A program made the position numbers and the translations under genes. Shown one piece after another: positions 1,985 to 14,988 of a stretch of 42,832 bases of DNA (its first letter is position 1; every line of letters starts with the position of its first letter). Under the pieces are notes generated by a model. It ran no database searches, had not been told where the DNA came from, and worked only from the letters and a program-made list of their open reading frames with translations. The DNA comes from a virus (Duplodnaviria > Heunggongvirae > Uroviricota > Caudoviricetes). The DNA lies in the IMG/VR virus record IMGVR_UViG_2541047913_000006; one strand, 5' to 3'.

Positions 1985-2794
1985 TTATTCCTCTGAATTA
2001 TCGATTACACTGTATTCCCCGGTTAATACAGAGGAATCTGCAGGATCGATTGTCAGTGGTTCCTTTTCATCCATTGATACTGCACGCTGGATCTCAATTG
2101 ATACGGGCAGATATTTGAACAGGCGACGAATAGCCGTTTTCTTTGCCATTTCTTCCCAGTGAGTTACCCACGGCCCGTTATTACCAGCTTTACTCAGGCT
2201 GCGCACCAGCTCAATCTGTTTGCGCGTCATAACTTCAAACTGAGTACCTCCGTCTTTCAGTCTTGCGACAGCATAGACGTGGGTAACCGGGGCATCTTCG
2301 TTTTCTCCCGGGCGGTGTATTAACTTTTCATCAAGGCCAAATTCGAAGCTAAACTCGTCACCTTCACGGACAACACGGGCTGACAGGCTGGCGATTTGAC
2401 CAGAACGGCGAGCCAGATCAATCATGCCGCGATAGCCAATGATTAGCTGAACGTTCTTTTTACCGCTCTTTTCGTTTTTATTACCAAAAGGCAGTAAATA
2501 TGCATGACCGAGGGCGCTACCTGGCTCAAGTCCGAGCTGTGAACACTGTACGATCGCACTGACAAAACTCATAGTGTCACAGTTTCCTAACGCCGGAACT
2601 TTACGAATTTCTGTGGTGGCGATACGGATCATACGTTCAGCCGTCATATGGCGTGGAAGAGCTGCTGCCAGTTGCTCTTTCATTGATGGCTGGTTAATAA
2701 AACTAATCACGTCGCTATTTTTAACTGCTGCTGGTGCACGGTTTCCCTGAGTTTTTTGCAGATCGGCTTTTGCGATTGGTGGTTGCTTAGTCAT
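1985..2794 (-). CDS. recT: RecT single-strand annealing protein (269 aa)
   Basis: Translation from ATG 2792-2794 begins [21 protein letters not shown]; 8-nt overlap with recE stop, the classic recE/recT arrangement. Confidence 0.9.
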
Positions 2795-5387
2795 TTGCAT
2801 ATTCCTTAGCCCAGCGGGGCAGTGATAATGTCTTAATAGCTGGCCATTCATCGGTATTCAGGCAGTCAGACAGGGTTCGCAGATTGCGGTGATATTCCTG
2901 TTGACCTGCCAGTTTTGCTTCTTCGCCCATCATGAAAATTTCAACCGGATAACGTCCGCATTCAATAGTTGTGCTGGCAACCAGAAAAACGAAAGTTGGC
3001 TGCACTCCAAACTGTGCTTCATAACCGTCACTGTAGAATGCATCCTGAACGTGATAGCGGTAGTCGTAATAAGCGGTTTTGAATCGTTGAATATCCGCCG
3101 TAGTTTTCACGTCCATGATCCAGTGAAATTCAGGGATAATTTTGTCCGGACGGCACCGACACAAAATTCCTGTTTCAGGATCTTCCCAGTAAATTGATGA
3201 TTCAGCGTGTCCGGCGCTTTCAACAAGCCATTGCCCCAGCGGCAAAGCCATAACGCTTTGATACATGAGTTCAATTTTCCGGCCTTCTTCCGCAGTGATA
3301 ACCGTTTTTCCTGTGCTTGCGCATTCCATCAGAAACGCTTTCTCTTCTTCTTTTCCGGCGTTTGTACGGCGGTTAAATTCAGGTGCTACGATAAAGCGGT
3401 TACTGAATTCTTCCTGTTCAAGTACCCGGCAGTGGAAAGCAGTTCCTAAATCGAGCGTTTTTGTCTTTGTGGTGTCCACGGGGGCATTTTTACGCCACAA
3501 ATATAGTGCCGGAGTATCAGCAATGTCATCGAGCTGAGACTTACTGATACCGGGACCCGCGTGGTAATTCTCATTCGAAATTCCGTAATAAATACCTGGC
3601 TCTATGTCTTCTACGATTACGGGATCTGCGACTTCGCCAGTTTCATCACTGCAATCGCGATGCGGATCGCTGCCAGCATTCTCATTGTGCGGATGTTCAG
3701 CGCCTTCCATTTCCTCCGGATCATTTTCCTTAGCTTCAACCTGACTCTCTTCATCGAATGTTTCCTGGTATGTTGCGTCGCCCATCACCGCACCACAGTC
3801 AGGGCAGTTATCCCCGCCAGTCTGGCCGCAGGCATTGCAGGCTATTTCCGGTTCCTGTTGCACTACTGGCTCAGGTTGATTCATATCCGGGCTGGTTTTT
3901 TCCGTTTCTGGCTGGTTCTGGTACACACAATCGCGAGTCTGGATCCCCTTTACCCATTTCGGATCGTTCGGGTCGCTAATTCCGTCAACAAATTCACCAC
4001 GTGATGCAGCAAGCAATTTATCGGCATCGACAGGATTTTTTGATGGAATGTTTTTCCGGGCTTCATGGAGTTCTGCCCGCAGTTCCTGATATTTCGCATC
4101 AACAGAATTTACCTGTGACTGAGCATCCAGCGGCTGCGTGTCCTGATGATGTTCAGTTGCGTCCTGTTCCATTGTTTCAGCCTCTCCCTGTTCAACTGCC
4201 GTTGTTCCAGATGGTTGCGGTTTTTCTTCATCATCCTGTTTTCCTTCTTCTGTTACTCGCTGCGGCATCGGGGCAGAGGAGCGACCGCAGGCAATATCCA
4301 CGATTTCCGGATCAGGGTTGGCATGATCGGTTTCAGTCAGTACTTTGTTCAGATATTCAGTGACGTGCGCGGGGATGACCTCGATCCCAATTGGTGCTTC
4401 TTTTACGGACGCAACCACGATGGCGCGGGAATAATCCAGCCCGCCAGGCATGGTGATGAATTTGTCGCGGAAAACAGAAAAGGGCGGTTTATTTTCAGCG
4501 ATAATTTCCTCAATGCGTTTAGCGTGTGCCGGATGAAGGTTATAGATGTCCAGATCCATTGAACGGGCCAGTACGCCAGTGGCTACGTCGCGCGCCAGTG
4601 ACGTCAGATCGTGTACGAAACCTTCGCCGCGATCGGTGAGGTTTCCGCCGCCAGCATTAGCACCGGAAGCCGTGCGAGTGATGTGTGAAACACGATTACC
4701 CTTCATCCACTCTTTTGTCAGCAGTCCTCGATCGGTGTAGTCAGCGTTCAGGTATGCTTCGAAAAAAGCAGTTATCAGTCCCAGGTTTGAATTACCAGGA
4801 TTAGGGAAAACTTTGTCAGTGTCACGAACCAGTTTGTGGAGTTCGCGAATTTCCAGCGGGTCGAGCAGGCTGGTTTTGTGGGAAACAGCCAGGGCAGTAA
4901 CAGCCGGTAGTTCTTCAGCCCGAGCAATGTGTAATGCCTGGAGTCCGTCGCGTGAAACGTGCGTTACCGGTTTTTCGCTGCCGTGTTGAGCAAGCCAACG
5001 AATGGGCAGTTCCTGGCCAGAAATTGGGAGTAGCATATTCTCCTCAATCTCAGTCATGTCTTCGCCGTTGACGTTGGTATTGCCTTGATAGTGAGCGTTG
5101 TCTGGTGCTGCTCCCGGTTTTAGTTCCCATGTCATGGAGTCTTTGCTGAGTTGATAGCGTTCACTCCAGGTAAAATCGATCTCACCTTCAGCGGGCAGGT
5201 CATTAACGACAGGAAAATTCGTGGCAACAGCTTTAAAATAGCTGCTCAGTTTTTTACCTGACTTAACGATCAGGTAGTCCAGAGTGGCACAGGTCGATTC
5301 AAAATCGTTGCTTGCCCACAGGACGACGTCAGGTTCACCGGATGATTTTTTCGCTTTCCGTAACAGGAAGAGTGGTTTTGTGCTCAT
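2787..5387 (-). CDS. recE: Exodeoxyribonuclease VIII RecE (866 aa)
   Basis: 866-aa [23 protein letters not shown]...; acidic central region and C-terminal nuclease domain; length and sequence match RecE as I recall it. Confidence 0.9.
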
Positions 5388-5488
5388 TGTTTTTTAACCT
5401 CAACTCAGATTAAAATTCGTTTTGTTCAGTGAATGATCTTGCCGGATACACACTGTTCATAGCCTGCGTCATACGCAGGCTATTTCTT

Positions 5489-5838: not shown

Positions 5839-6009
5839 TTAAAGTTCATGTGCCATCTGGTCTTTTTCGGCACAAGCTTCACTGCAATATTTTCTCGGTT
5901 CGTCTTTTGATAAAATCCCGTGCATGAAGTGAAGCATTCTTTCAATAGCTTTGCTTTCTTCAACGTCTTTTTTGCAAAGGTGGTAAGCACATTTTATTTT
6001 CTTAGTCAT
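5839..6009 (-). CDS. ydaE: Small Cys-rich protein YdaE (56 aa)
   Basis: Not in ORF track (<60 aa); my translation of the reverse complement gives [56 protein letters not shown]; ATGA overlap with kilR stop. Confidence 0.65.
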   Translation of the reverse strand: MTKKIKCAYHLCKKDVEESKAIERMLHFMHGILSKDEPRKYCSEACAEKDQMAHEL

Positions 6010-6230
6010 CACCATGACTCCGCCTTTACAGGTAAACCATCACGACCGAGGAAGACTTTAATCATGCGGTCAGTAATGCATGTTTTTGTGGTCAGGTTAC
6101 GAATATATAGTTTTCGCTTTTTAATATTGTTTGCCGAGGCAATATATGTCCGGCCTTCATGAAGAACATAATCGCCAGGAGTCACACACTGACGTGGTAT
6201 TTCATCAGTTCCGAAGTGATGTGCAATCAT
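6009..6230 (-). CDS. kilR: KilR, FtsZ-inhibiting killing protein (73 aa)
   Basis: [38 protein letters not shown]... matches KilR as I recall it; start at ATG 6228-6230. Confidence 0.85.
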
Positions 6231-6671
6231 AATTATCTCCATTTTTACAAATGAACTTTGTTGATGCGGTGCCTGGTGCCTCCAGGTGACTGCAACCAGT
6301 TAACAATTACAGTCGGCTTTCCCACCCAAACCAATAAGGACTAACATGACTTTTAACTGTGCCACGTGCGCTTAGCCGCATTCACCGCATCACAAAATTC
6401 ACTTTAAAAAGGGCGGACATCAGCCGAACTTCAAGAAAAAAACTGATGCCGCCAGGACTACACACAGCAATGTCGTTATTTACAACCGGAGGCGCACTCC
6501 CACCATTTAAATTTAACAGACAAGACCGACTCTTTATGGATATCGGAAATGCGCCTTCGTGTTGTGCCCGGTTTTATTTCACCACCTCCGGGCTTCGGTG
6601 GTCTCGGCTATACCCCTACAGCGAGAGCTTGTGTTAACATTTCAATACCCTTACAGTTGAGAGTTATTGAT

Positions 6672-7160
6672 ATGTTGGATGTATTTACTCCATTGTTGAA
6701 ATTTTTTGCTAACGAGCCACTCGAAAGACTTATGTATACGATTATCATTTTTGGTCTCACTCTCTGGCTGATACCGAAAGAGTTTACTGTCGCATTCAAT
6801 GCTTATACTGAAATACCTTGGCTCTTTCAGATTATCGTTTTTGCCTTTTCTTTCGTGGTCGCCATTTCCTTCTCAAGATTGCGAGCGCATATTCAAAAGC
6901 ATTATTCATTACTACCAGAGCAACGAGTATTGCTTCGTTTATCTGAGAAAGAAATCGCTGTATTTAAAGATTTCCTTAAAACAGGAAATCTTATTATCAC
7001 TTCTCCTTGCCGTAACCCGGTTATGAAAAAATTAGAACGGAAGGGCATCATTCAACATCAGAGTGATAGCGCAAACTGTTCTTATTATCTCGTCACCGAA
7101 AAATACTCCCATTTTATGAAGTTATTCTGGAACAGCAGGAGTAGACGTTTTAATCGTTAG
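6672..7160 (+). CDS. sieB: Superinfection exclusion protein SieB-like (162 aa, membrane)
   Basis: Internal start MLDVFTPLLKFFANEPLERLMYTIIIFGLTLWLIP; hydrophobic N-terminal helices; position between kil and repressor as in lambda/Rac. Confidence 0.7.
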   Translation: MLDVFTPLLKFFANEPLERLMYTIIIFGLTLWLIPKEFTVAFNAYTEIPWLFQIIVFAFSFVVAISFSRLRAHIQKHYSLLPEQRVLLRLSEKEIAVFKDFLKTGNLIITSPCRNPVMKKLERKGIIQHQSDSANCSYYLVTEKYSHFMKLFWNSRSRRFNR

Positions 7161-14491: not shown

Positions 14492-14988
14492 TGCCTCCAT
14501 CATTACGAAAAGTCGTTGCTGCTGCTATTGGTGGCGGAGCAATTGCTATAGCATCAGTGTTAATCACTGGCCCAAGTGGTAACGATGGTCTGGAAGGTGT
14601 CAGCTACATACCATACAAAGATATTGTTGGTGTATGGACTGTATGTCACGGGCATACAGTAAAAGACATCATGCTCGGTAAAACGTATACCAAAGCAGAA
14701 TGCAAAACACTCTTGAATAAAGACCTTGCCACGGTCGCCAGACAAATTAACCCGTACATCAAAGTCGATATACCGGAAACAACGCGCGGCGCTCTTTACT
14801 CATTCGTTTACAACGTGGGTGCTGGCAATTTCAGAACATCGACGCTTCTTCGCAAAATAAACCAGGGCGATATCAAAGGCGCATGTGATCAGCTACGTCG
14901 CTGGACATATGCTGGCGGTAAGCAATGGAAAGGTCTCATGACTCGTCGTGAGATTGAGCGTGAAATCTGTTTGTGGGGTCAGCAATGA
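14491..14988 (+). CDS. SAR endolysin (GH24 lysozyme, R21/RrrD-like)
   Basis: 165 aa; N-terminal Gly/Ala-rich signal-anchor-release segment ([20 protein letters not shown]); lysozyme motifs (EG..Y.PY.D..G..T.G.GHT). Confidence 0.85.

Follow-up and report, generated by a model that had tools for sequence, protein, structure and literature searches.

Genes and features at the locus

The window analysed here is a stretch of viral DNA of 42,832 nt, and all positions given below are positions in that window. A hairpin followed by a U-run had been predicted from its sequence on the minus strand upstream of kilR, as a possible terminator. The part of the window around the hairpin is a Rac-type prophage, and the site lies between kilR and sieB, as it does in K-12. 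The features that matter for the analysis are listed in Table 1.

Table 1. Genes, RNA segments and signals around the KilS hairpin (window positions).
Feature	Position	Strand	Basis or remark
recE	2787-5387	minus	
racC, ydaE	between recE and kilR	minus	
kilR (FtsZ inhibitor)	6009-6230	minus	gene downstream of the terminator
kilR leader, STnc100-like	6243-6405	minus	Rfam RF02076 and similarity to the Qin spacer
KilS sRNA, 98 nt (K-12 b4833)	6406-6503	minus	NC_000913.3 annotation and identity
C + U5 tract	6406-6411	minus	C at 6411, U5 at 6410-6406; CCGCCCUUUUUAAAGUGAAU identical in Qin dicF
Terminator 3' arm	6412-6423	minus	RNA CUGAUGUCCGCC, one bulged U; window letters GGCGGACATCAG
Terminator loop	6424-6442	minus	RNA UUUUUUUCUUGAAGUUCGG; variable part of the family
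Terminator 5' arm	6443-6453	minus	RNA GGCGGCAUCAG; window letters CTGATGCCGCC; aligns to the 5' arm of the DicF model
Likely seed region, AAAUAACGACAUUGCUGUGUGUAGUC	6456-6481	minus	directly 5' of the terminator; begins at about the RNase E site
Putative extended -10 of the KilS promoter, TGTTAAATT	6510-6518	minus	read from the sequence
sieB	6672-7160	plus	
racR-like repressor, 139 aa	7745-8164	minus	

A stable hairpin with a short U-tract

The hairpin and U-run are present where the original prediction had seen them, except that its coordinates were one base low. The stem comprises 11 pairs (5 + 6) with one bulged base and a formal loop of 19 nt, and its base is a GGCGG/CCGCC clamp. The centroid fold has 13 pairs and a 15-nt loop. 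Following the U5 tract, the minus-strand RNA continues with AAAG (AAA, 6405-6403).

A folding calculation, which had been named as a check, returned a stable structure. The 66-nt minus-strand RNA reached -19.5 kcal/mol compared with -11.9 ± 2.5 kcal/mol for 200 dinucleotide shuffles (z = -3.09), and none of the 200 shuffles folded as well. Stability had been doubted because of the 19-nt loop; at this energy, a large loop is evidently compatible with a stable fold. On the plus strand the same stem can form (-17.1 kcal/mol), yet no U-run follows there, which would confine terminator activity, if any, to the minus strand.

The site has the features of an intrinsic terminator: a stable, GC-rich stem-loop, a U-tract, albeit a short one, directly 3' of the stem, and an RNA 3' end within that tract (K-12 position 1418405, window 6406, the last U). 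The evidence for this 3' end is RNA-seq and northern sizing by Bar et al. 2021 (PMC8175672), and we infer that termination is what produces it. Because the U-tract is short (U5, then AAAG) and the nominal loop is large, termination efficiency may be modest. A standard terminator scan does not report the site, which is no argument against it since that scan allows loops of at most 8 nt. The supplements of the 3'-end mapping study of Adams et al. 2021 that we searched had no entry for kilR, sieB or the coordinate, and we found no independent 3'-end-mapping record for the site.

The hairpin as the terminator of KilS

In the K-12 reference genome NC_000913.3, an ncRNA named kilS (b4833, "small RNA KilS") is annotated at 1418405..1418502 on the minus strand, between kilR and sieB. 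Using the offset of 1411999 between K-12 and the window, as set by kilR, this interval corresponds to window 6406-6503. The two sequences have 0 mismatches, and the nearest differences lie at 6272 and 6702. The annotated 3' end of KilS is the last U of the U5 tract, which bears out the prediction of a minus-strand intrinsic terminator upstream of kilR. The RNA is therefore identical to that of K-12, whereas the prophage that carries it is different, with the window diverging from about 7616 onward in the immunity region.

The KilS RNA, its ends, its Hfq dependence and its RIL-seq chimeras are known from Bar et al. 2021 (PMC8175672). In that work the RNA was predicted from RIL-seq as "sieB.kilR.IGR", in the class of 5' UTR-derived sRNAs, and was verified by northern blot. 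The signal was lost in a delta-hfq strain and built up in stationary phase. The transcription start site (TSS) was placed at 1418502, which is window 6503, an RNase E site was recorded at 1418471, which is window 6472, and the reproducible RIL-seq partner was yncL. Northern probe 1 of that study, GCGGACATCAGCCGAACTTCAAG, corresponds to window 6413-6435, that is, to the 3' arm and loop of the hairpin. As for the structural part of the class of Hfq-dependent sRNAs, KilS has it in the form of a terminator hairpin with a U tail.

We are thus highly confident that the hairpin and U5 tract are the Rho-independent terminator of KilS, a 98-nt Hfq-dependent sRNA of the Rac prophage. The hairpin itself is no new element: the sRNA that it ends is already part of the E. 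coli reference annotation, and this explains the feature that had been predicted. No feature was annotated at the KilS site in the PGAP-annotated genomes or phage records that we examined, which is probably why the hairpin had looked unexplained.

Among 5426 complete E. coli genomes, 1748 carry the kilR-sieB intergenic region over at least 80% of its length. KilS and its leader are also found in four phage records (ON470614.1, ON470616.1, ON470590.1 and KU052037.1). They are 100% identical in the Escherichia phages vB_EcoS-666R9, -673R7 and -613R10 and 88.8% identical in phage Rac-SA53 (KU052037.1), and none of the four matches has an annotated feature under it.

Promoter, processing and proposed mechanism

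The putative extended -10 element TGTTAAATT ends 7 nt upstream of the KilS TSS. Nearly all KilS-type loci retain the longer motif that contains it, TTGTC(T)GTTAAAT, and these include loci with otherwise diverged or replaced flanks (L006, L031, L116 and L124). We saw no good -35 element for this putative promoter. As a candidate promoter element, the conserved extended -10 fits the independent KilS TSS reported by Bar et al.

The following mechanism would accommodate these features. Polymerase would start at 6503 on the minus strand from the extended -10 promoter and transcribe the 5' domain and the seed-like segment. It would then mostly halt at the GC-clamped hairpin and U-run. A terminator hairpin with a U tail is the usual Hfq-binding module, and in KilS these elements would serve as the 3' Hfq-binding module, which would explain the loss of the RNA in the delta-hfq strain. 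An RNase E cut at about 6472, between AC and AUU, would yield a 66-nt form with the AUUGCUGUGUGUAGUC segment free at its 5' end, much as DicF has a 5' end made by RNase E. Read-through polymerases would make the STnc100-like leader and the kilR mRNA, so that the terminator would act as a leaky attenuator in the kilR 5' UTR.

KilS is related to DicF of the Qin prophage

A permissive Rfam scan matched the DicF family (RF00039) at 6411-6466 on the minus strand over the full model (positions 1-52 of 52), with 39.1 bits and E = 4.7e-7. The gathering score of the family is 48 bits and KilS falls short of it, so we regard KilS as a homologue of DicF and not as a member of the curated family. A 305-nt alignment of the Rac minus strand with the dicF-dicB region of Qin had a mean column identity of 79%, and identity was higher downstream of the hairpin. 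Shared segments include TGGCGG.ATCAGTTTT, the 3' clamp with its U-run (CCGCCCTTTTTAAAGTGAATTTTGTGATG) and most of the leader up to the start codon. The 5' part and the loop differ between Rac and Qin dicF, while the U-run and the start of the leader are identical.

On these sequence grounds, KilS is a diverged homologue of DicF. Both RNAs contain GGCGG.AUCAGUUUU and CCGCCCUUUUUAAAGUGAAU, and both are encoded by a lambdoid prophage directly upstream of a small division-inhibitor gene, behind a conserved leader of which about 165 nt are common to the two. Both also have a 3' end at the hairpin and an RNase E-generated 5' end. That the 3' end of DicF is made by transcription termination is stated in the title of Faubladier 1990, as cited elsewhere. 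The two differ in their 5' region and loop, which are the target-pairing parts of DicF and are unrelated in KilS. They differ as well in how they are made, KilS from its own TSS and DicF by processing of a ydfABC-dicF transcript, and in the gene downstream, which is kilR for KilS and dicB for DicF. The gene orders can be set side by side: dicA, ydfA (DUF1391), ydfB, ydfC, dicF, dicB in Qin, and racR, ydaG, ydaF (DUF1391), sieB (on the opposite strand), KilS, kilR in Rac. An sRNA with its terminator, a conserved leader and a division-inhibitor gene make up a prophage cassette that is common to Rac and Qin.

In the literature that we searched, neither the homology of KilS and DicF nor a mosaic family was found stated; a 1994 paper on dicF-related prophage sequences lay outside its coverage. 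The main text of Bar et al. 2021 does not mention DicF, and Balasubramanian et al. 2016 does not mention Rac. Priority for the KilS-DicF relation is therefore uncertain. For work on prophage sRNAs, it could be useful to know that KilS is a diverged DicF homologue that routine annotation has overlooked.

A possible mosaic family of prophage sRNAs

Searching IMG/VR with the shared 20-mer CCGCCCTTTTTAAAGTGAAT gave at least 120 loci. Their upstream parts were of the DicF type, the KilS type, a third type, or hybrids of these. The third type has the 5' part CCAUGUUGAUUACC..., with CCAUGUUGAUUACCUUUUGGCGGGUAUCC...GAUACCCGCCC; L052 and L093 are examples among the mosaic IMG/VR loci (L005-L124). Hybrids combine a DicF 5' part with a KilS-like stem (L011), a KilS 5' part with a DicF-like stem (L104), or a third-type 5' part with a KilS-like stem (L045 and L072). 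The downstream ORFs are swapped too: DicF is followed by kilR in L033, the third type by kilR in L115, and KilS by a DicB-like ORF in L104. In L116, a KilS-type element is followed by a 94-aa ORF with a YdaE-like C-terminus (...YCSKRCASHDQMAHEL).

We folded the variants one by one because a joint alignment of 14 hairpin variants (MAFFT and RNAalifold) did not bring the variable loops into register, nor the bulged stems with the unbulged ones; its consensus was poor, at -5.7 kcal/mol, with double changes at only 2 pairs. Immediately 5' of U5, every variant except L124 and L108 formed a simple hairpin, with energies from -10.7 to -22 kcal/mol; those two have a damaged 5' arm and irregular minimum-energy folds. 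The inner stem varies. In L006, the U that bulges out of the KilS stem has a partner in an inserted A, and the third type has a different inner stem that is fully complementary (GGCGGGUAUC/GAUACCCGCC). A hairpin at the position of the KilS/DicF terminator is thus conserved while its inner sequence changes. The invariance of the outer stem is partly an artefact of the search, as the pattern contained CCGCCC, and covariation of the outer GGCGG/CCGCC pairs is thus not assessable.

A leader-motif scan with one genome per species placed elements of the DicF/KilS type essentially only in Escherichia and Shigella and yielded no extra outer-stem variants. In one locus from Pantoea latae (L186), a hairpin of -17.2 kcal/mol (GGCGGUUUCUUCAG...CUGAUUUGACCGCCC, then CUCUUUUU) lies about 177 nt upstream of an STnc100-like motif. 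It is similar in design to the DicF/KilS terminator, of which it may be a distant relative outside Escherichia.

Likeness to RprA and candidate targets

The most unexpected by-product of the analysis is, at the level of sequence, a likeness between KilS and RprA. The KilS segment AAAUAACGACAUUGCUGUGUGUAGUC, which we chose as the likely seed region, and nt 51-75 of E. coli RprA (AAACAACGA-AUUGCUGUGUGUAGUC) are identical at 24 of 26 nt, and in both RNAs the common segment lies 2-4 nt before the terminator hairpin. A rough Karlin-Altschul estimate makes the match unlikely by chance even across all Rfam families. The RNase E site (6472) falls inside the RprA-like segment, directly before AUUGCUG, and the core of the segment, GCUGUGUGUA, is conserved in KilS-type loci. 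RprA (RF00034) is a core-genome activator of rpoS, and its remainder, terminator included, is unrelated to KilS; the whole RprA model scores insignificantly on KilS (28 bits, E = 0.38).

The best local duplex between KilS and the yncL 5' UTR uses the seed segment (-21.4 kcal/mol), with 8 of 40 shuffles doing as well. It pairs KilS UGUGUGUAGU with yncL ACUAUACACA, and AUUGC with GCAAU. This is no more than suggestive of the seed segment as the predicted yncL-pairing region. When applied to the validated pair of DicF and ftsZ, the same windowed method gave no separation (7 of 40 shuffles were as good), and for this reason the target predictions are to be taken as suggestive only. Unrestricted RNAduplex runs of KilS or DicF against ftsZ and yncL returned unrealistically long duplexes and no signal.

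We put forward a wider reading tentatively, as one that is possible but would more easily prove wrong than right. KilS, DicF and at least one further type, the third type above, would form a mosaic sRNA family with a fixed GGCGG...CCGCCCUUUUU terminator, an STnc100-like leader and a division-inhibitor gene, in which 5' seeds, inner stems and ORFs are recombined. The Rac-type prophage would possibly mimic, or have donated, part of the RprA targeting region and so tap the RprA regulon. If true, interchangeable seeds on one chassis of terminator and leader, one of them RprA-like, would be a case of prophage regulators evolving by seed swapping.

The kilR leader

From the KilS terminator to kilR, the sequence matches STnc100 (RF02076), a prophage-associated sRNA/leader family. 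The match spans 6223-6409 on the minus strand and covers the full model at 35.5 bits (E = 4e-6), which is below the gathering score of 47, and it lies outside the predicted hairpin. An inverted repeat (I1) and the model alignment point to a long-range helix within the leader, in which GAUGCGGUG, just after the terminator, pairs with CACCGCAUC, which closely precedes the ribosome-binding site of kilR.

The STnc100 core hairpin CACCNGGAGGCACCNGGCAC is widespread in Enterobacterales, including Kosakonia, Enterobacter, Pantoea and Trabulsiella. Unlike the Rac and Qin loci, most STnc100-like loci outside Escherichia and Shigella have no element of the DicF/KilS type upstream. The core is often repeated, with 2-3 copies in a stretch of some hundreds to some thousands of bases at one locus (loci L127-L246, e.g. 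L200, L222, L194 and L176); L200 has three copies about 570 nt apart. A few matches in Actinobacteria and Bacteroidota look like chance.

Alternative explanations and the control of kilR

Could the hairpin be a chance inverted repeat without function? A custom scan of the window for hairpins of -15 kcal/mol or lower whose end falls no more than 2 nt from a T5 found 6, compared with 3.1 ± 2.2 in 15 dinucleotide shuffles. By sequence statistics alone, a hairpin with U5 of comparable energy is thus not rarer than chance in the window, although the KilS hairpin is the sole compact single stem-loop among the six. We nevertheless judge it to be real because an annotated, experimentally mapped RNA 3' end falls exactly at the site and because the hairpin is retained, with differing sequences, throughout the diverged prophage variants of the DicF/KilS family; the northern probe also covers it. 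A functionless repeat is accordingly so improbable that we give it almost no weight. An antisense role like that of DicF, in which the hairpin loop and 3' half of KilS would pair with ftsZ mRNA and back KilR in blocking division, is also quite improbable, if less extremely so. It draws on the homology over the whole DicF model, the placement upstream of a division inhibitor, and the pairing of the DicF 3' region with the ftsZ ribosome-binding site (PMC5069750). The KilS loop matches the ftsZ-pairing segment of DicF in position, but its sequence is not conserved: where DicF has the nucleotides predicted to pair with ftsZ (CUCCG ... UGCUCUGCC), KilS has others, both in the loop and in the inner 3' arm. 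In the top-scoring local duplex of KilS with ftsZ it is the 5' end of KilS that pairs, and 13 of 40 shuffles equalled this duplex in what is a low-power test, and the RIL-seq partner is yncL, not ftsZ (PMC8175672).

A further possibility is a dedicated terminator resembling lambda tL, which would stop transcripts that run leftward out of the immunity region and thereby keep kilR, racC and recET silent. We consider this unlikely, but less so than the two readings above. The terminators tL1 and tL2 of lambda belong to the pL operon and are read through by N antitermination. The KilS hairpin resembles them in being an intrinsic terminator that precedes the kil and recombination genes in the leftward early region of its lambdoid prophage. 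It stands in the path of any leftward transcript, with kilR, ydaE, racC and recET all on the minus strand beyond it, and some fraction of incoming polymerases must stop there; the homologous DicF terminator of Qin likewise sits within the dicB operon, upstream of dicB. Unlike tL1 and tL2, the KilS terminator ends an sRNA that has its own promoter. Only 97 nt separate the TSS from the 3' end, and what is made is a stable, discrete RNA bound by Hfq. Matches to boxA (YGCTCTTWA) in the window lie only at 14790, 27398 and 30572, with none between the immunity region and kilR and no boxA-like sequence within about 8 kb, so a terminator/antiterminator pair in the style of lambda is not indicated. In the K-12 gene table, sbcA is a synonym of both racC and recE, which is a weak hint that recET is activated downstream of the hairpin; a search of the sbcA literature found no mapping detail. 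The documented silencing also differs from that of lambda. In K-12, leftward transcription toward kil is blocked by t_rac, a Rho-dependent terminator that lies within racR. When t_rac fails, kil is expressed, which is reported to be lethal, and bicyclomycin or Psu raises the expression of Rac genes (PMC4150792). It follows that upstream transcripts pass the hairpin in amounts that matter and that the hairpin cannot be a tight block.

We therefore return to the hairpin as the KilS terminator. The original prediction had cast it as a gate on leftward transcripts that could contribute to the silence of recET. What stands of the gate is a terminator within the kilR 5' UTR, which from that position must reduce transcription into kilR to some degree. 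What falls away is gating as its main role: it ends a discrete sRNA with its own TSS, and the documented kil block is t_rac. Nothing ties the hairpin to the silence of recET. As an attenuator of kilR the terminator is probably leaky, given that it has only U5, that dicB in Qin lies beyond the homologous terminator in the same operon, and that t_rac failure is reportedly lethal through kil. Control of kilR is probably two-layered, with a leaky intrinsic terminator in the 5' UTR and, in K-12, the Rho-dependent t_rac upstream as well.

Near-identity of the window to K-12 Rac extends to about 7615; beyond that point, in the immunity region, the two diverge. Its racR-like repressor has 139 aa, and racR of K-12 spans 477 nt. 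With a divergent immunity region and a different racR-like gene, the K-12 t_rac may not apply to the prophage in the window.

A second hairpin was seen elsewhere in this part of the prophage. At 5459-5483 on the plus strand, between recE and racC and on the strand opposite to both genes, there is a strong terminator-like hairpin with 11 pairs and a 3-nt loop (ATAGCCTGCGTCATACGCAGGCTAT, then TTCTTTC).
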